A stretch of DNA of 64,000 nucleotides from Patescibacteria group bacterium (GCA_041661405.1 JBAZUL010000005.1:3164-67163); one strand, 5' to 3'. Counted from the stretch's first letter, positions 25,934 to 33,265 are shown. Made by a program: numbers and translations. The notes: generated by a model not told the origin, from the sequence alone.

Positions 25934-26878
25934 TTAATTCATATTAACGCTCCCGGCCTTCCGTCCTTCAGCCATAAACCGGCAGACTTTCTCGCTCGTG
26001 GAAATAGCGACATCAACCTGCGCTTCTTCGGTTGAAGCGCCGATATGCGGGGTAAGAATTACGTTCGGCAATCCGGCGAGTTCGCATTCCATTTTTTCGT
26101 CATTGGTTTTTGGCTCGTTAGCGTAAACGTCAATTGCCGCTCCGGCGAGATGGCCGGATTTTAAGGCTTCTGCCAGAGCCATTAAATCAACAACGTTCCC
26201 GCGGGCGAGATTGATGATGTAGCTTCCCTTTTTCATCAACGCCAGTTTTTCGGCGTTAATAAGATTGGGTGCCGAGGCATGGAGCGATACGACGTCAGCG
26301 ACGGCCAGAAGCTCTTCCAGAGTCTTCATCTTTTTCGCGTTGCCCATCGGGAGTTTATCAAAAACGTCAAAGAATATAACTTTCATGCCGAGCGCTTCGG
26401 CTAAAACCGAAAGTTGGGAGCCGATGTTGCCGTAGCCCACTATGCCTAAAGTTTTTCCCCGGACTTCATAAGAACCTTTGGCTGATTTTTTCCAGTCTCC
26501 GGCGTGCATTTCCCGGTTGCGGTCGCCGATTTTTCGCAGTAAGGAAATAATCAGGCCAATACCTAGTTCGGCAACGCTTCGCGTTGAAGAAAAAGGCGCG
26601 TTAAAAACGCAGACTCCGGCTTTAGAGCAGGCCGCTAAATCAACCTTATTCAGTCCGATAACATACCCGCCAATGACTTTTAGACTATCGGCGGCGGACA
26701 AAATTTCTTCGTCAATTTCAGTCTTTGAGCGGATGCCGAGCGCGTCAACGCCCTTTATTTTTTCCTTTAACTCGTTCTTAGGCAAAGTGCCTTTGATTAA
26801 TTCCACTTCAAAATCGCGCTCTTCAAAATACTTTTTCGCGAGCTCGCTGATTCCTTCTAACAGTAGTACTTTTGGCAT
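25934..26878 (-). CDS. serA: D-3-phosphoglycerate dehydrogenase (short form, no ACT domain)
   Basis: 314 aa D-isomer 2-hydroxyacid dehydrogenase with NAD motif GIVGYGNIGSQ and catalytic region TPHIGASTEEAQ. Confidence 0.85.
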   Translation of the reverse strand: MPKVLLLEGISELAKKYFEERDFEVELIKGTLPKNELKEKIKGVDALGIRSKTEIDEEILSAADSLKVIGGYVIGLNKVDLAACSKAGVCVFNAPFSSTRSVAELGIGLIISLLRKIGDRNREMHAGDWKKSAKGSYEVRGKTLGIVGYGNIGSQLSVLAEALGMKVIFFDVFDKLPMGNAKKMKTLEELLAVADVVSLHASAPNLINAEKLALMKKGSYIINLARGNVVDLMALAEALKSGHLAGAAIDVYANEPKTNDEKMECELAGLPNVILTPHIGASTEEAQVDVAISTSEKVCRFMAEGRKAGSVNMN

Positions 26879-26993
26879 AGGTTTATGTTGATCTAATTAA
26901 TAACAAATTTGGAAACAGGAGAGGACGTTTCCATGCGAAGGCCAGGTGTAACAAAAGCCTTCTACAAAGAATCGTCCTCTCCGGGGCGCGGGG

Positions 26994-27203
26994 TCACTCA
27001 TCCCAGTTTTCATTATCTGGGAGATCGTTATCCCGCGCCTCCTCCTCCAGAGGAGGCGCTTTTTTCTCCTCAACGGTTCCCTCGGACGCCCGAGGAGATT
27101 TAGGCGCCCGAATTTCGGTCGGTGCATTCAAGCAGCGAATGCACCGACCGGTGTCCTGATTCAAGTGCCCGCCATCGCCTGACGGGCAAAAAATAAAAGA
27201 CAT
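26994..27203 (-). CDS. GC-rich small ORF A (69 aa), Cys/His N-terminal half and acidic tail
   Basis: The SD and start read GGGGAGGTGAGAGATG. First-position G periodicity suggests coding. It contains perfect 13-bp (27117-27129/27137-27149) and 10-bp (27035-27044/27050-27059) palindromes. GC is about 55 percent by hand count. Confidence 0.5.
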   Translation of the reverse strand: MSFIFCPSGDGGHLNQDTGRCIRCLNAPTEIRAPKSPRASEGTVEEKKAPPLEEEARDNDLPDNENWDE

Positions 27204-27335
27204 CTCTCACCTCCCCGGCGGCCCATCCTTGCGGCCGCCTTTTTGATTATTAATGCCACCGAACAAAAAACCAGAAACCAATTCTTATTGATTTCCACTT
27301 TCTTGTCCACTGCTATTTTTAAAAGGAACAAAATT
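27204..27335 (-). promoter_or_regulatory. leader of sORF A (paralogous to the leader of sORF B)
   Basis: Shares with 27633-27766 the AATTTTGTTCCTTT box, a 17-bp hairpin (27261-27277/27292-27308), TTAAYAA..AAAGGCG and a GC hairpin abutting the SD. Confidence 0.55.
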
Positions 27336-27419
27336 ATATAAATTCTGTTATTAGAATTGGAACCCGGAGACGTTCCTGAAAGATAGAACACATCTTCCAA
27401 AAGCTTCTCCGGGGCACCG

Positions 27420-27632
27420 CTATTCGTCAACGAGGCCGAGTACTTCGGCCACGGTCTCGCTGACCGTGGTTGGCCAGTAAACTATCAGAATAGCGGCCTC
27501 AACCGGCGTAAAAGCCGGCTGAATTTCTTCGTGACCCCGGTCATCCGGAACCACAATCCCCCCGATTTCCGGGGGTAAGGGGCGTGTTGTTCTCTGCCGG
27601 CACCCCTCGCCGGCGGACTCATTATTAAACAT
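27420..27632 (-). CDS. GC-rich small ORF B (70 aa)
   Basis: The SD and start read GGAAAGGAGAGGAGATG. It contains several perfect internal hairpins, for example CCACGGTCagcgaGACCGTGG. It may be coding or a structured RNA. Confidence 0.45.
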   Translation of the reverse strand: MFNNESAGEGCRQRTTRPLPPEIGGIVVPDDRGHEEIQPAFTPVEAAILIVYWPTTVSETVAEVLGLVDE

Positions 27633-27766
27633 CTCCTCTCCTTTCCGGCGCGCCCCTATCCGAGAGGGGGCAACGCCTTTGTTAATTCCAACGAACAGGA
27701 AACCGGAAACTAAACGCGTTTACTTTCCGCTTTCCTGTCCGCTGATCATTTTAAAGGAACAAAATT
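27633..27766 (-). promoter_or_regulatory. leader of sORF B (paralogous to the leader of sORF A)
   Basis: The hairpin at 27693-27709/27724-27740 aligns with that of leader A. It differs at four stem positions where G-C pairs in B replace A-U or G-U pairs in A, so pairing is kept. Confidence 0.55.
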
Positions 27767-27799
27767 ATTGAAAGGGATTAACGCAATCTAATCCATTTT

Positions 27800-28693
27800 T
27801 TATGTAAATAATCCCGTACTCAAATACTTCTCCCCTCTATCCGGAAAAATCGTTACTATGTTCCCTTTATCAATTTTTTCCGCAATTTTTAAGGTCGCGA
27901 GCATGGCGGCGCCGGACGACATGCCGACAAAAATCCCTTCTTCGGCAATAATTCTCCGCGCCATCCTAAAAGCCTCTTCCGTGTCAATCATAATAACATC
28001 GTCCAATTTTTCGCAGTCATAAATCTCCGGGACAATCGCCTCTTCCATGTTTTTTAATCCCTGGATGTAGTGCTCCTTAACCGGTTCAGCCGAAACGATT
28101 TTCACCGCCGGATTTTTCTTTTTTAAATAAGCGCCAATACCCATGAGCGTTCCCGACGTTCCGAGGGCGGCGGTAAAATAATCAATCTTCCCGCCCATGT
28201 CGCGCCAGATTTCCCGAGCCGTTGTTTCGTAATGGGCGATCTTATTATATTCGTTGCTAAACTGGTTCGGGTTAAAATATTTATCCGGATTTTCCGCCGC
28301 GAGCTCCCTTACTTTCATTATAGCTCCGTCCGTGCCTTTTGTCTTGTCAGTTAAAATTACTTCCGCGCCGAACGCTTTAATCATCTTAATCCGTTCCGGA
28401 GAAACCGCCGCGCTCATTACTATTTCAACCCTATAGCCGCGCGCCGCCCCAATCATGGCGAGCGCGATTCCGGTATTGCCGGAAGTCGCTTCAATAATAA
28501 TTTTTTCCTTATTAAGCTTCCCTTCTTTTTCTCCCTGTTCCAGCATTTTTAAGGCGATCCGGTCTTTTATGCTTCCGCCCGGATTAACACCCTCAATTTT
28601 AGCGTAAATATTCACGCCCTTTTTTTTATTCAGTTTATTGATTTTTACCATCGGCGTCCGGCCGATTGTATCAAGGATGTTGTTATAAATCAT
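27800..28693 (-). CDS. cysK: cysteine synthase (O-acetylserine/O-phosphoserine sulfhydrylase)
   Basis: 297 aa with PGGSIKDR (PLP lysine region), TSGNTGIALA and GTSGT motifs. Confidence 0.9.
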   Translation of the reverse strand: MIYNNILDTIGRTPMVKINKLNKKKGVNIYAKIEGVNPGGSIKDRIALKMLEQGEKEGKLNKEKIIIEATSGNTGIALAMIGAARGYRVEIVMSAAVSPERIKMIKAFGAEVILTDKTKGTDGAIMKVRELAAENPDKYFNPNQFSNEYNKIAHYETTAREIWRDMGGKIDYFTAALGTSGTLMGIGAYLKKKNPAVKIVSAEPVKEHYIQGLKNMEEAIVPEIYDCEKLDDVIMIDTEEAFRMARRIIAEEGIFVGMSSGAAMLATLKIAEKIDKGNIVTIFPDRGEKYLSTGLFT

Positions 28694-28875
28694 ACAAATA
28701 AAATCCGTCCCTTTTGAGGACGGTTTCTTTTTTACAGTCTGCTGTTCATGGGTTTTTTAACTTTCAGACTTAGACTTTTGACTTATGGGAAACCATCCTT
28801 AAAACCGGCTTGCTACCCGAGCCGCCGCATCCGCCTGAAAGAGACATTTTAAAGATGGTTATGTTCATAATTATA
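28694..28875 (-). promoter_or_regulatory. structured cysK leader of about 180 nt (candidate riboswitch or attenuator, class unknown)
   Basis: A 14-bp P1-like helix (28790-28803/28846-28859, one G-U) encloses a GC-rich core. An AAGTC word array follows, then hairpin CCGTCC..GGACGG (28705-28723) plus a U-run 11 nt before the ATG. Promoter-like TTGACA/TATAAT elements lie at about 28880-28915. Confidence 0.4.
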
Positions 28876-28961
28876 TGCTAAATAATTTTTACTCAACTGT
28901 CAATAGCGCCGAGCGCGAGAGAGAGGCGTCCCGTAGCCGCCCCGCATTTTGCGGGGCGGGA

Positions 28962-29600: not shown

Positions 29601-29675
29601 ATTTCTAAGCAAACAGTAAATAATAAACAGCGAACAGTATCTTTTAACCACTGCTTACTATTTACTGTTTATTGG

Positions 29676-30959
29676 TTACTGGTTGCTTAATAATATCTTT
29701 TTTACTTCCTCATAATCATTCTTAACGCAAATCTTTCTTTTCTCCAGCTTCGCTAAATTAGCAATCTCTTTAGAGTCGTCAACTTCAATGCCGGTGTGCT
29801 TTTTTATTACGTCAGCGAACTTTATTGGCGAGGCCGTGGAAAAAATAACTTTGGTATAATCATTAGAACCTTCTTTTTCCGCTCCGGCAAAAGCCACGGC
29901 CGTATGCGGATCAAGCAAGTATCCGTATTTTTCGTAAACTTTTTTTATTATAGCCGCTGTTTCCGCGTCTTCCACCCTTTCGGCTTTAATTACTTTGCGG
30001 AATTCTTCCGGGTCATTATTGAATACTTTTTGGATGCGGATAAAATTGCTCGGGTTGCCGATGTCCATGGCGTTGGAAAGGGTCGCGACCGTCGCCCGCG
30101 GTTTAAACTCTCCTGTCTCGTAATATTTTTTCGCCGCGTCATTAGCGTTGGTAACGGCTAAAAACCGGCTGAAAGGAAATCCCATTTCCCTAGCGAAAAC
30201 TCCGGCGCAAAGGTTGCCGTAATTGCCGCAAGGCACGACGAATTCCAGCTTCTGATCAGCCAGTTGGGAATAGACATAAGCGTAATAAACCATTTGCGGG
30301 AGGAGCCGGCCGACGCTTATGGAATTAGCCGCCGTAAGGTTTAATTCTGCTAAGTCCGGATCATTAAACGCCCGCTTAGCGAACGCCTGGCAGTCGTCAA
30401 AAACGCCTTCAATTTCTATTGTCGTTACATTCGGTTCTACGCGGGTTAACTGCTCTTCCTGCAGTTTGGAAACCATGCCTTTGGGATAAAGGATGATGAC
30501 TTTCACGTTCGGTACGCCGCCGAAGCCGTGCGCTACAGCGCCGCCCGTATCGCCCGAAGTCGCGACTAAAATCGTCGCGGTCCGGTTTTCTTTTAGAAGG
30601 ATCCGGCCCATGAACCGCGCGAGAACCCGCGCCGCCACGTCCTTAAACGCGAGCGTCGGACCATGGAACAGCTCAAGCACCTGGTAATCGCCGATCTTTT
30701 TCAAAGGCAGGGGAAAATTTAAAGCCTCAGCCATTATTTCCCGGAGTTCGGCTTCGCTAAAATCATCGCTAACCCATTTTAAAAGCGTTTTTGCCGCGGC
30801 TTCGGCCAAAGGCTTTCCTTTTAAATTTTCCAGCTCTTTTGCCGTTAATTTTGGAAAAAATTCGGGAAAATAAAGCCCCCCGTCCGGGGCGAGGCTTTTT
30901 AGCATGGCTTCCCGGAAGGTTGCTTTTGGCGATTTTCCGTTCAGGCTGTAAAAATTCAT
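29676..30959 (-). CDS. thrC: threonine synthase
   Basis: 427 aa. The N-terminus FREAMLKSLAPDGGLYFP, the PLP-lysine region FHGPTLAFKDVA and SGDTGGA fit the long ThrC class. Confidence 0.9.
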   Translation of the reverse strand: MNFYSLNGKSPKATFREAMLKSLAPDGGLYFPEFFPKLTAKELENLKGKPLAEAAAKTLLKWVSDDFSEAELREIMAEALNFPLPLKKIGDYQVLELFHGPTLAFKDVAARVLARFMGRILLKENRTATILVATSGDTGGAVAHGFGGVPNVKVIILYPKGMVSKLQEEQLTRVEPNVTTIEIEGVFDDCQAFAKRAFNDPDLAELNLTAANSISVGRLLPQMVYYAYVYSQLADQKLEFVVPCGNYGNLCAGVFAREMGFPFSRFLAVTNANDAAKKYYETGEFKPRATVATLSNAMDIGNPSNFIRIQKVFNNDPEEFRKVIKAERVEDAETAAIIKKVYEKYGYLLDPHTAVAFAGAEKEGSNDYTKVIFSTASPIKFADVIKKHTGIEVDDSKEIANLAKLEKRKICVKNDYEEVKKILLSNQ

Positions 30960-31021: not shown

Positions 31022-31435
31022 TTATTTCTTCTCGTCTTTATTTAATTTATAATTAAAACTCTCAACGAGCGCGATCCAGCTGGCTTCTATAATATTTAAC
31101 GACACTCCGGCCGTTTCCCAACTGTCTTTTCCGTCGGTTGATTCAATCGCTACCCGGACTTTGGCCGCGGTGCCGTCGTTTGAAGGAAGCACCCGGACTT
31201 TGTAATCCGTCAGTTTCATCTTTTTTAAGCCCGGATAAACCCTTTCCAGAGACATTCTTAAAGCGTTATTTAAAGCGTCAACCGGCCCGACCCCGGCCGC
31301 CGTATTCCTTTCTTTATCAGCGCCAACTTTTATCCCGACCTCAGCCTCGGCCGTTGGTTCGCCCCAGTCCCGCTCTTTATGGACGCTCACCCGGTAATCC
31401 ATGAGCTCAAAGAATTTTTTTTCTTTGTTAGGCAT
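31022..31435 (-). CDS. stand-alone LeuA_dimer-type (IPMS/citramalate synthase C-terminal allosteric) domain protein
   Basis: The 137-aa sequence ...AEAEVGIKVG...AAGVGPVDALNNALR...LTDYKVRVLPSNDGTAAKVRVAIESTDGKDSWETAGVSLNIIEASWIALVESFNYKL closely matches the regulatory domain of CimA/LeuA. No catalytic barrel is present. Confidence 0.75.
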   Translation of the reverse strand: MPNKEKKFFELMDYRVSVHKERDWGEPTAEAEVGIKVGADKERNTAAGVGPVDALNNALRMSLERVYPGLKKMKLTDYKVRVLPSNDGTAAKVRVAIESTDGKDSWETAGVSLNIIEASWIALVESFNYKLNKDEKK

Positions 31436-31566
31436 ATTATTTAGAGTTATTATCCCCTTGTAATATTAATCTAGCACATACTCCTAAAAATTCAATCCTC
31501 AACCCTTAACTAATCCGTCTTCCAAATTTTCCCTGTCATGCCTATGGATAAGGTAAAAGTTGAGGA

Positions 31567-31610
31567 GAAGAGGAAGAGATCGGCTTTTTCGCGTCCGTCT
31601 CTTCCTCTTC
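31567..31610 (-). terminator. 13-bp perfect hairpin after sORF63 (terminator-like)
   Basis: GAAGAGGAAGAGA at 31567-31579 pairs with TCTCTTCCTCTTC at 31598-31610. Only a weak U-tract follows on the minus strand. Confidence 0.45.
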
Positions 31611-31629
31611 CCGGGAGGGGCGAGGGCGA

Positions 31630-31821
31630 CTAAAATCCGCCGCCCTCAACCCCGGCTTCCAAACAGATCGCGCGCGCGCCACCCAGTTGGGCGGCGACGT
31701 GCTTGTGGCCGCCACAAAGGCAAGCCACAACCTGCTTGGAAGGGGGTTTTCCCTCCCTTTCCAAGTGCTCCCGGAGGAGGCGAATTGCCTCCTCCAAGGA
31801 TGGTTTTTCTTTGGGGGTCAT
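31630..31821 (-). CDS. GC-rich small ORF (63 aa)
   Basis: The SD and start read GGGAAAGGAGGTGATAACATG. First-position G periodicity is visible. Internal perfect palindromes include a 9-bp one at 31773-31781/31787-31795. Confidence 0.5.
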   Translation of the reverse strand: MTPKEKPSLEEAIRLLREHLEREGKPPSKQVVACLCGGHKHVAAQLGGARAICLEAGVEGGGF

Positions 31822-31972
31822 GTTATCACCTCCTTTCCCCCGAATTTGAAAAAAACAATAAATCTCCTATACAACCCCAGCCTCTTCTAAACTTAATCTT
31901 GTCCTCCGTAGCCTTGGCAAAGGAGGAAAAGGCCAAAGTAATATCCGCGATTTTTTTGAAAGAACATTAAAC

Positions 31973-31999
31973 AAAAATACCGCCCCGGTTGCGGGCGGC
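31973..31999 (-). terminator. attenuator terminator of the Thr/Ile/Met-rich leader
   Basis: The minus strand reads GCCGCCCgcaaccgGGGCGGTATTTTTG. Its 5' arm (31989-31999) is perfectly complementary (11 bp) to 32055-32065 inside the leader ORF. Confidence 0.6.
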
Positions 32000-32027
32000 T
32001 TTCAACTTTTCTTCTAACTTTCAGCTT

Positions 32028-32138
32028 TTAACTTTGAACTTTTAACTTTGTTCTGCCGCCCGCAATTAAAACCCCGGTCATAATAATTCCGGTCATCATC
32101 ATAATGGTCTTAATTGTGGTGGCAATAAATTTCATCAT
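32028..32138 (-). CDS. 36-codon leader peptide rich in Thr, Ile and Met (alternative reading: small hydrophobic peptide)
   Basis: Own translation gives MMKFIATTIKTIMMMTGIIMTGVLIAGGRTKLKVQS. It is below the ORF-track size cutoff. It is preceded by TTGACA-17-TTAAAT, with the ATG 6 nt after the -10 (leaderless geometry). Confidence 0.5.
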   Translation of the reverse strand: MMKFIATTIKTIMMMTGIIMTGVLIAGGRTKLKVQS

Positions 32139-32144
32139 GCTTAT

Positions 32145-32173
32145 ATTTAATCAAACATAGCCAAGGCTGTCAA
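32145..32173 (-). promoter_or_regulatory. sigma70-like promoter for the Thr/Ile/Met leader
   Basis: On the minus strand, TTGACA (32173-32168), a 17-nt spacer and TTAAAT (32150-32145). Confidence 0.5.
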
Positions 32174-32219
32174 CAATGGCGGGCGTGGCTGACTTTCTTT
32201 CTTTGAGCTAAAATTAACT

Positions 32220-32450
32220 TTACTGTTTCAAGCTCCCCCGTTTTCCATAAGCTCTTATTGCCTCGTCTTTTTCTTCTTCAGTGGTTATTCCTTCATTTTT
32301 GCTTTCTTCATTAACCCGCTTTATCCCGCGAGCTTCCATGCACCCAGGATGCATGCAAGCCTCGGTACAGGTGAGCGCCTCTTCTTTTTTCCCAACTTCT
32401 CCAGTCATCGGTTGTTCTTCGCCGACAATCTCTTTTGGTTTCTCATTCAT
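32220..32450 (-). CDS. small ORF D (76 aa), Glu/Lys-rich with a CTEACMHPGC motif
   Basis: ORF with a TATAAT-containing upstream region. The Cys motif is encoded by an 11-bp near-palindrome, GCTTGCATGCA..TGCATGGAAGC. Confidence 0.4.
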   Translation of the reverse strand: MNEKPKEIVGEEQPMTGEVGKKEEALTCTEACMHPGCMEARGIKRVNEESKNEGITTEEEKDEAIRAYGKRGSLKQ

Positions 32451-32613
32451 ATAATTAGTTTATTATTAAATCCCTATCTTATTTTTGATTATAGCTAACA
32501 GCCGGACTTTTGAAAAGAGGCGCAAGAAAATCTCCCGCGCGGAATGGGAGAATGAATGGGATAAATGAACGCGTGCTTCAACTATCCATCCGCGCGGATT
32601 TGCCTTGCCAAGG

Positions 32614-32859
32614 CTATTTGGCTTTTTCCTCCTTGATAATTCCGAGTTCAAGATGACGAGCCCGATACATCTCACTTACCGGGTTCACCTCCTGCTCCCG
32701 GGCAGTCTTCGCCCGGTCGCAGTCCCTTTCCGAGTGCGCCCTCTCAAAGCGGCGCACCAGTTTTTCTTTTTCGGCCTGACTCAGCATATTGCCGAACTGG
32801 CCGATCTCCAGCCCGCACCTACTACAGCAGACTGGAACAAAAAAACTTATTGAAACCAT
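32614..32859 (-). CDS. GC-rich small ORF C (81 aa), with an N-terminal CCSRCG motif
   Basis: The SD and start read GGGGAGGAAGAGATG, preceded by a GC hairpin and a TTAACAA..AAACGGGCGG box homologous to the leaders of sORFs A and B. Confidence 0.5.
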   Translation of the reverse strand: MVSISFFVPVCCSRCGLEIGQFGNMLSQAEKEKLVRRFERAHSERDCDRAKTAREQEVNPVSEMYRARHLELGIIKEEKAK

Positions 32860-33094
32860 CTCTTCCTCCCCGGCAACCCTCTCACGGGCCGCCCGTTTGT
32901 TGTTAACAAATACTTTGCCCTCGCCAACTTTCTGATTTCTATCGCAACGATTCGCGCTTTAATTAGATCCTTCTCCCGAGGACTCGGGATCAGGATGACA
33001 AATAAAGGGAAACATAAATAGAAAGCATAAAGCTGGCAAGGACTATGCTGAATTTGAAAGAGCGGACTGATATATTAATTATACTTGATTAAAT

Positions 33095-33180
33095 CAGTAT
33101 TCCGCGACATTCGTGCCATTCGTTTCTATTCGCGCAAATTCGCTTGCCTCGGCTTGCCAAAGGCAAGACGGGTTAATTCG
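33095..33180. repeat. phased CGAAT-word array around a GC hairpin
   Basis: Plus-strand ATTCG occurs at 33109, 33118, 33128, 33138 and 33176 (spacing 9, 10 and 10 bp, then 38). The hairpin CTTGCCaaaGGCAAG lies between. Confidence 0.7.
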
Positions 33181-33189
33181 TGTATTTAC

Positions 33190-33220
33190 AAAAACCGTCT
33201 CCCCTTTTCCCTGAGACGGC
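33190..33220 (-). terminator. rho-independent terminator of the pheA-tyrA operon
   Basis: The minus strand reads CCGTCTCagggaaaagggGAGACGG followed by TTTTT. It begins 46 nt after the tyrA stop. Confidence 0.75.
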
Positions 33221-33265
33221 CTGCGTTGTAATTGGAATATATTATAAATAAAATATAACAATCTG

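Follow-up and report, generated by a model that had tools for sequence, protein, structure and literature searches.

Two tandem units located between a cysteine synthase-like gene (cysK) and serA in a Patescibacteria genome each carry, ahead of a small ORF, a leader hairpin which is probably a real, strand-specific RNA duplex of 24–27 bp with its pairing kept by selection. The hairpin is a cis-acting mRNA leader element, a simple stem-loop that is not categorically new in kind. It lies outside every described family and is found in public data in one Patescibacteria lineage only. Throughout, the window is the whole stretch of 64,000 nt of DNA that was analysed.

Genomic context and architecture of the units

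The genes near the units are all on the minus strand, and the region is hence read in that sense. The order on this strand, 5' to 3', is cysK (28693-27800), unit B, unit A, serA (26878-25934), serC and a HAD hydrolase gene, giving an apparent cysK-serA-serC-HAD operon around the units. Best matches of the host CysK are Parcubacteria and Falkowbacteria MAGs (72–79% identity), and the proteins closest to it, at about 70% identity, come from many phyla and from archaea. Nearly all of the 64 kb and its flanks (L088 and L089) form an amino-acid biosynthesis island covering Leu/Ile/Val, Trp, the shikimate and aromatic pathways (including an archaeal-type DHQS II), Asp kinase, ASD, Thr and Ser/Cys. 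Patescibacteria are generally without such amino-acid pathways and the island is therefore unusual.

Each unit consists of a 20-nt box, an 8–9-nt spacer, a 48-nt hairpin, a Shine-Dalgarno (SD) run, an ORF of 69–70 codons and a long 3' hairpin, all on the minus strand. In unit B the conserved box is AUAAUUUUGUUCCUUUAAAA (27749..27768). The leader hairpin of this unit spans 27689..27744 in full by RNA folding and has a core GGACAGGAAAGCGGAAA...UUUCCGGUUUCCUGUUC at 27740-27693 (arms 27740-27724 and 27709-27693), a CGCG loop and one G-G mismatch. A second, GC-rich hairpin (27647..27677) sits just 5' of the SD-like run GGAAAGGAGAGGAG (27633..27646), which is followed by the 70-aa orphan sORF B (27420..27632) and the 3' trailer hairpin CCCGGAGA...UCUCCGGG (27363..27413). 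Unit A repeats this arrangement with its box AUAAUUUUGUUCCUUUUAAA (27318..27337), a folded leader hairpin at 27257..27312 (core GGACAAGAAAGUGGAAA...UUUCUGGUUUUUUGUUC, 27308-27261) that has an AAGA loop and again the G-G mismatch, a second GC-rich hairpin GGCGGCC...GGCCGCC (27217..27239) and the SD-like run GGGGAGGUGA (27207..27216). The orphan sORF A (26994..27203) encodes 69 aa with a Cys/His zinc-ribbon-like N-terminus and an acidic tail, and the trailer hairpin GGAGAGGACG...CGUCCUCUCC (26918..26982) is then followed by a U-rich stretch before serA.

The trailers of A and B resemble one another and have CCCCGGAGA...GGAACGUC...UCC...UUCCAA in common, so the similarity between the units extends beyond the leaders. 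The unit bodies are unalignable as DNA. As whole units, these sequences are strongly folded, with z scores of -9.6 for window 26885-27320, -8.3 for 27340-27750 and -6.6 for positions 175-612 of L085, a variant contig described below. The sORF bodies are themselves packed with near-perfect hairpins, for example a 15-bp stem at around 27150-27112, which is unusual for coding sequence.

Two other features of the island were seen during this analysis. The gene cysK is preceded (28694-28910, minus strand) by a promoter of canonical form (TTGACA, 17 nt, TAGCAT), and its leader of about 190 nt ends in a clean intrinsic terminator (ACCGUCCC...GGGACGG then UUUUAUUUGU) right before the ATG. This leader resembles an attenuator or riboswitch; it has no Rfam match at E values up to 1 and a fold z score of -2.9. 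At 31022-33265 (minus strand) an ORF of 137 aa corresponds to a LeuA dimerisation/regulatory domain alone, with about 1.8 kb upstream that is without a long ORF on this strand. The region could represent the remains of leuA or cimA, or a feature that escaped annotation.

Structure and pairing of the two hairpins

Read on the minus strand, both hairpins are present exactly as described in an earlier note on this DNA, as is the G-G mismatch reported there to be common to A and B. The 17-bp stem of that description exists, yet it was under-called, since 24 of 26 positions are paired in each copy; four of the extra pairs are at the base and four to five are apical. The two leaders had also been said to align over about 130 nt. 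Around 100 nt of this alignment is good, taking in the box, the hairpin and AUUAA, while the last 40 nt before the ATG align weakly. Four stem positions differ as had been stated, with G-C or C-G in B where A has A-U or G-U. Considered as covariation, however, one of these is a two-sided change (A-U to G-C) and three are one-sided switches between G-U and G-C. Two apical pairs are double changes between the copies (C-G to U-A and U-A to A-U).

Between A and B, 11 of the 52 stem bases differ (21%), a rate equal to that of the flanks, and both copies keep 24 pairs. In simulations using transition fractions of 0.5–0.8, at least 24 pairs were kept after 11 random substitutions with P of 0.0007–0.006. 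The RNA folds are stable (-22 kcal/mol for A and -29.3 kcal/mol for B, z about -7 relative to shuffles). No inverted repeat in the 64-kb window is longer than hairpin B, and a degenerate hairpin pattern matches within the window at these two sites only, with 0 matches expected.

A third version of the leader from the same sample

A metagenome scan with an R/Y-degenerate hairpin pattern, allowing any transition in the arms, returned three contigs, namely the known contig, L084 and L085. L084 was rejected on reading as a chance match within a GC-rich coding region. L085 is a contig of 1257 nt from the same sample and represents a variant haplotype, whose versions of the two units are here called B' and A'. 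The stem of A' differs from that of A by one base, which turns U-G into C-G. In B' the 5' arm is that of B, and the 3' arm has three C-to-U changes, each converting G-C into G-U. With 5 differences from B, B' retains 23 of 26 pairs, compared to 24 of 26 in A, A' and B. The apical part of B' is longer and made of new sequence, yet still pairs (UAGAC with GUUUA). The loops, AAGA in A, CGCG in B and about 14 nt in B', have nothing in common and are free in both sequence and size. It is the stem and not the loop that matters.

Over the four copies 96% of cells pair. There are 14 invariant pairs, 6 with one-sided variation, 3 with two-sided variation and 2 that are unpaired in some copies, and the one-sided changes are all pairing-neutral on one strand only. 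None of the four differs at the G-G mismatch or at the pairs next to it.

The minus-strand RNA fold of B' is -26.8 kcal/mol. On the plus strand the folds are -5.0 kcal/mol (A), -18.5 kcal/mol (B) and -3.1 kcal/mol (B', no better than shuffles). When DNA parameters are used, the minus strand folds far less stably (-8.5 to -21 kcal/mol). The strand-limited folds, taken with the kept pairing, make the structure most simply an RNA in the direction of transcription. The claim of the earlier note that the hairpin is a functional RNA element is thus borne out as to the pairing, which is kept on the sense strand in three versions, the third of them (B') independently diverged, while the covariation cited for it is mostly wobble switching and the comparison covers four copies of one population, with no homologue found in the other genomes searched. 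Gene conversion between the copies could inflate the apparent conservation.

Comparison of the window with L085 shows 45 nt of identity across the box and 5' arm, and near identity in the trailer of B and throughout unit A, while divergence is high from the hairpin loop onward until shortly before the ORF ends. Between B and B', conservation is much stronger in the leader and trailer than in the ORF they enclose, and these two flanks are either under strong constraint or serve as homology for crossover. The second GC-rich hairpin of leader B is missing in B'.

L085 (170-735 against window 27346-27800) is a mosaic, in which the start of the ORF also differs from B, and between its cysK and box it has an additional, terminator-like hairpin of about 70 nt. 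The hairpins in the ORF bodies are at similar places in B and B', yet out of register. In another contig, L002, all 22 differences from window 27980-28112 fall within 130 nt of cysK and mostly at third codon positions, a pattern suggesting that a short tract was acquired by recombination with a diverged relative. The mosaic L085 and the clustered differences of L002 imply that recombination is active at this locus.

Searches for further copies

The earlier note did not recognise the motif, and indeed no Rfam family matches it. Rfam at gathering thresholds gives only three tRNAs over the whole window, and for 26850-27850 with E up to 10 the best score is 23.9 bits against a threshold of at least 58. 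The covariance-model search of the genome and its relatives that had been suggested turned up no further copy. The model, built from A and B, gave no additional hit in about 17 kb of extra flanks from this genome (about 80 kb in total) and no homologue in 80 cysK-centred loci from other Patescibacteria and other phyla. The nearest relative, with 79% CysK identity, is without the units and without adjacency of cysK and serA. Two pattern scans of viral contigs and BLAST of both units against phage genomes gave nothing, and exact look-ups of serA and the sORFs returned the same population only.

A weak covariance-model match at 29602-29697 was rejected as an unrelated palindrome. The AU-rich palindrome at 29612-29668, between thrC and the next gene, has about 21 bp plus an outer 8-bp helix. 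In contrast to the leader hairpins it folds alike on either strand (-31 and -28 kcal/mol), and it is possibly a bidirectional terminator or a DNA-level site.

The small ORFs and their Shine-Dalgarno sequences

Judged from the reading frames, the sORFs are probably translated, as B aligns with B' along its whole length at 43% amino-acid identity (45 bits). A single frame is kept between them through about 40% nucleotide divergence, and 11 of the 30 conserved residues have different codons. Frame-test scores were 124, 105 and 62. The start of B' lies 22 codons upstream of that of B, in sequence without homology, and again AAAGGAG stands 7 nt before the ATG. We considered that these might be spurious ORFs within a structured non-coding RNA (z -8 to -9.6) and set this aside because of the kept frame, the different codons and the SD that B' has of its own at a new start. 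A and B' are distantly similar, with a pairwise E value of 0.002.

Versions A, B and B' have ORFs of 69–84 codons that start 5–8 nt after a strong SD-like run, and their products are charged and acidic, without a hydrophobic helix. Searches with A, B and a B+B' profile through 5.8 billion word-indexed and 1.84 billion exhaustively scanned proteins found no homologues other than themselves, and nothing was found in Pfam, PHROGs, PADLOC or PDB sequences. Two weak HMMER matches to the B/B' profile (E of 1e-4 and 7e-4) were rejected as translated tandem repeat DNA. These matches, P0004 and P0005, are long 'proteins' with a repeated ...LLHFVRNDGILDFRHCNK... motif, which the palindrome-encoding N-terminal part of B' (NDGDLDRRHFN) resembles, possibly through composition or a common repeat element. 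AlphaFold models of the sORFs are of low confidence (pLDDT 58 and 65); that of sORF A suggests a small Cys/His beta-hairpin module.

Among 47 long ORFs in the window, none has a recognisable SD and none has GGAGG or AGGAG within 25 nt of its start, the upstream regions being A/U-rich. Clear SDs are found only at sORF A and sORF B in the window and at B' in L085. Given these SDs of their own and their absence from the closest relatives, the units look lineage-specific and possibly acquired, with their own expression signals.

The box upstream of the hairpin

A 20-nt box, AUAAUUUUGUUCC(U)UUUAAAA, precedes each hairpin and occurs nowhere else in the window. It is the best-conserved part of the leader and its longest perfectly conserved stretch, and the box of B is identical in B' from UUUUG onward. 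In the box of B, a core UUCCUUU is complementary to the SD, a TAAAAT resembles a -10 hexamer and a segment, UGUUCCUUUAAAA, resembles boxA.

An alternative is that the box is promoter DNA, with TAAAAT as the -10-like hexamer. TTTTCA-18-TAAAAT scores 9 of 12 in L085. However, spacing of the candidate hexamers is inconsistent across the three leaders (14, 15 and 17 nt), and no consistent sigma-70 promoter was found for all three.

A possible processing or stability signal in the mRNA leader

The explanation we favour, though only tentatively, is that the hairpin is a structural mRNA element acting as a double-stranded processing or stability signal. It would do so in one of two forms. In the first it would be an RNase III-type site, where messages of the small genes would be cut out of, or away from, the cysK-ser transcript. 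In the second, the 5'-proximal stem and the 3' hairpin would together protect the ends of the message. Either form would set the expression level of the unusual SD-led genes. We infer from sequence and predicted folding that the hairpin is transcribed, where its transcript would start, and that it would act through a nuclease or through end protection.

Processing or stability is favoured since an unbranched and very stable duplex, with a free loop and the SD outside, fits a double-stranded RNA signal. RNase III needs about two helical turns of regular dsRNA (at least 20 bp), and 23–24 of the 26 positions pair here. In phage T7 and the lambda N leader, hairpins of this kind are repeated ahead of consecutive genes. 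In addition, 5'-proximal stems protect mRNAs from 5'-end-dependent RNases, and such a stem combined with one at the 3' end shields short messages from exonucleases.

Similar to the RNase III hairpins of T7 early mRNA and of the lambda N, rnc and pnp leaders, the element is a regular duplex longer than 20 bp, broken by a small irregularity in its middle, it has a leader or intercistronic place, its loop is unconserved and similar copies stand before successive small genes. It differs from them in that there is no sequence similarity, a 20-nt box precedes the stem and cleavage is only predicted. Genes for RNase III, RNase J or RNase Y are not among the annotated genes of the window, nor is rnc among those of the 80 kb or so that include it. 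The resemblance to 5' stabilisers such as E. coli ompA and B. subtilis aprE and ermC lies in the stem being near a possible transcription start, if TAAAAT is a -10, and in a 3' hairpin closing off the short message; the stem is, however, two to three times longer here. A plain structural role leaves the top conservation of the box unexplained.

The tests put forward in the earlier note implied control by a ligand or by temperature, and this part of its proposal was not upheld. The hairpin is a plain long duplex, a single unbranched stem of -22 to -29 kcal/mol, with no loop sequence in common and no conserved unpaired loop bases. The SD lies outside the stem, about 45–65 nt from the hairpin in A and B and about 30 nt from it in B'. 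A hairpin of this shape argues against a ligand sensor or thermometer.

Alternative explanations

Conservation of the box would be accounted for if the leader were a translational clamp, in which UUCCUUU of the box pairs with the SD (AAAGGAG/GGGGAGG), the hairpin brings the two together and the SD stays hidden until the clamp is opened or cut. The complementarity is present in all three versions and the box-SD pairing is part of the minimum-energy folds of A and B', the box is the longest perfectly conserved stretch, and the sORFs are the only SD-bearing genes among the 47 long ORFs checked. Nevertheless, we regard a clamp as unlikely. The box-SD helix is worth only about 1.6–3.8 kcal/mol, the best fold of B uses another upstream CCUUUC in place of the box, and the stability of the whole B' leader is not above that of shuffles (z -1.2). 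A 7-nt match of pyrimidines to purines also arises easily by chance, and the box may be promoter DNA that is not transcribed.

Some of the same traits recall the type I toxin leaders hok and aapA, which are likewise tandem, paralogous and structured small-gene units with a 5' pyrimidine stretch complementary to the SD. Type I systems pair a hydrophobic toxin of less than about 60 aa with an antisense RNA, whereas the ORFs here are of 69–84 aa and acidic, not hydrophobic, the SD is predicted to pair only weakly, there is no evident antisense RNA gene and no consistent plus-strand promoter was found.

The box could also belong to a nut-like antitermination signal, where it would be a boxA-type NusB/NusE site that together with the hairpin allows read-through of the units into serA-serC. 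The order in lambda nut is box, spacer and hairpin, which is the order seen here with a spacer of 8–9 nt. As in lambda nut and rRNA boxA-boxB, a U-rich box resembling GYTCTTTAANA precedes the hairpin in paralogous copies within one transcription unit, and what follows is highly structured RNA with genes that are small and evolve fast. Folding is extremely strong in the units (z -8.3 and -9.6), which lie inside the apparent cysK-serA-serC-HAD operon. With respect to the published consensus GYTCTTTAANA (PMC5725501), GUUCCUUUAAAA is a full match after dropping one extra C and matches 9 of 11 positions ungapped, although this consensus may differ from the boxA of the host. Occurrence of boxA elements outside rRNA operons has been documented (PMC5725501, PMC7665894), and the consensus differs between phyla (PMC7665894). 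The retrieved loci contain no rRNA from which to read the form proper to this organism. The match may be no better than chance, such sites being common in the AT-rich window (30 within one mismatch against 17 expected). Furthermore, boxB is far shorter than this hairpin, an N-like protein was not identified, and the loop is not conserved as an N-bound boxB loop would be, which excludes a loop contact of the lambda N/boxB type. Antitermination by such a signal is in our estimation quite unlikely.

Invariance of the G-G mismatch and its neighbours in the four copies might instead mark an RNA operator, with a regulator, possibly an sORF protein, recognising the stem at the mismatch and controlling translation or decay. 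The leaders are conserved while the proteins diverge, and the zinc-ribbon-like N-terminus of sORF A is predicted to be a small beta-hairpin Cys/His module. Yet no RNA-binding domain was detected in any sORF, the structure models are of low confidence, and 14 invariant pairs in four close copies tell little. An operator of this kind seems quite improbable.

A DNA-level element, in which a single-stranded DNA hairpin or inverted repeat would be a recombination or cassette boundary or an operator, would explain the conserved flanks around the swapped and diverged ORF of L085. Consistent with this are the mosaic itself, with its identical box and 5' arm, near-identical trailer and a body of 43% amino-acid identity, the recombination tract in cysK of L002, the absence of the units from the nearest relatives and the folding that minus-strand DNA still has (-8.5 to -21 kcal/mol). 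The hairpins resemble integron attC sites in being imperfect, in folding on one strand and in flanking small orphan ORFs that differ between strains. In contrast to attC, they are 5' of the ORF and beside an SD-bearing leader. No attC core sites (RYYYAAC, GTTRRRY; the R' and R'' cores) were present on either strand around either hairpin and no bulged bases were seen by eye. The genes annotated in about 80 kb include no integrase or other recombinase, no transposase and no reverse transcriptase. With the arms of A and B' being poor palindromes as duplex DNA and only two copies present, we consider a DNA-level role very doubtful.

A terminator or attenuator for cysK or unit B, in which the lower stem would be an A-tract:U-tract pairing formed in silico, is highly improbable. 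In its favour, the upper half of A' with the tail GUUUUUUGUU is flagged as terminator-like with 3 G-C pairs, a U6 run is found in the 3' arm of A and B', and no other structure comes between cysK and the hairpin in the window. B, however, has UUUCCUGUU and no U-run, and its 5' arm has changed in step (A-U to G-C and G-U to G-C), which indicates that pairing of the lower stem is itself selected. The upper stem is AU-rich with 1–3 G-C pairs, neither A nor B is flagged in the window, ordinary short GC-rich terminators occur elsewhere in the genome and L085 has its separate terminator-like hairpin between cysK and the box. Similarly, it is highly improbable that the hairpin has no function of its own and is a recent duplication that happens to hold an inverted repeat, as might be thought from four copies in one population and no homologue in the other genomes or metagenomes searched, because 11 (A/B) and 5 (B/B') differences leave 23–24 of 26 positions paired, the one-sided changes are all pairing-neutral on one strand only and the adjoining ORF bodies have diverged past alignment.

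Implications for gene expression in Patescibacteria

A further and highly speculative reading is that the leader (box and hairpin) and the 3' hairpin are 'bookends' of small-gene cassettes in Patescibacteria, which would bring their own SD, possibly a Nus-type box, and homology through which strains would exchange highly diverged alleles of small proteins. If this were true, fast-evolving small proteins would be cycled without an integrase inside a housekeeping operon.

To our knowledge, almost nothing is known of RNA-level gene control in the Candidate Phyla Radiation (CPR). As a candidate restricted to a single lineage, the hairpin has a modest pay-off. Its signature is an unusually clean one, with pairing kept via wobble and double changes on one strand only, and the element is attached to the only SD-led genes in an otherwise SD-less stretch of genome. 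The role of the hairpin would bear on how small, fast-evolving and possibly foreign genes are expressed within a biosynthetic operon and, if established, would open a first way into the study of mRNA processing, translation control or antitermination in the CPR.
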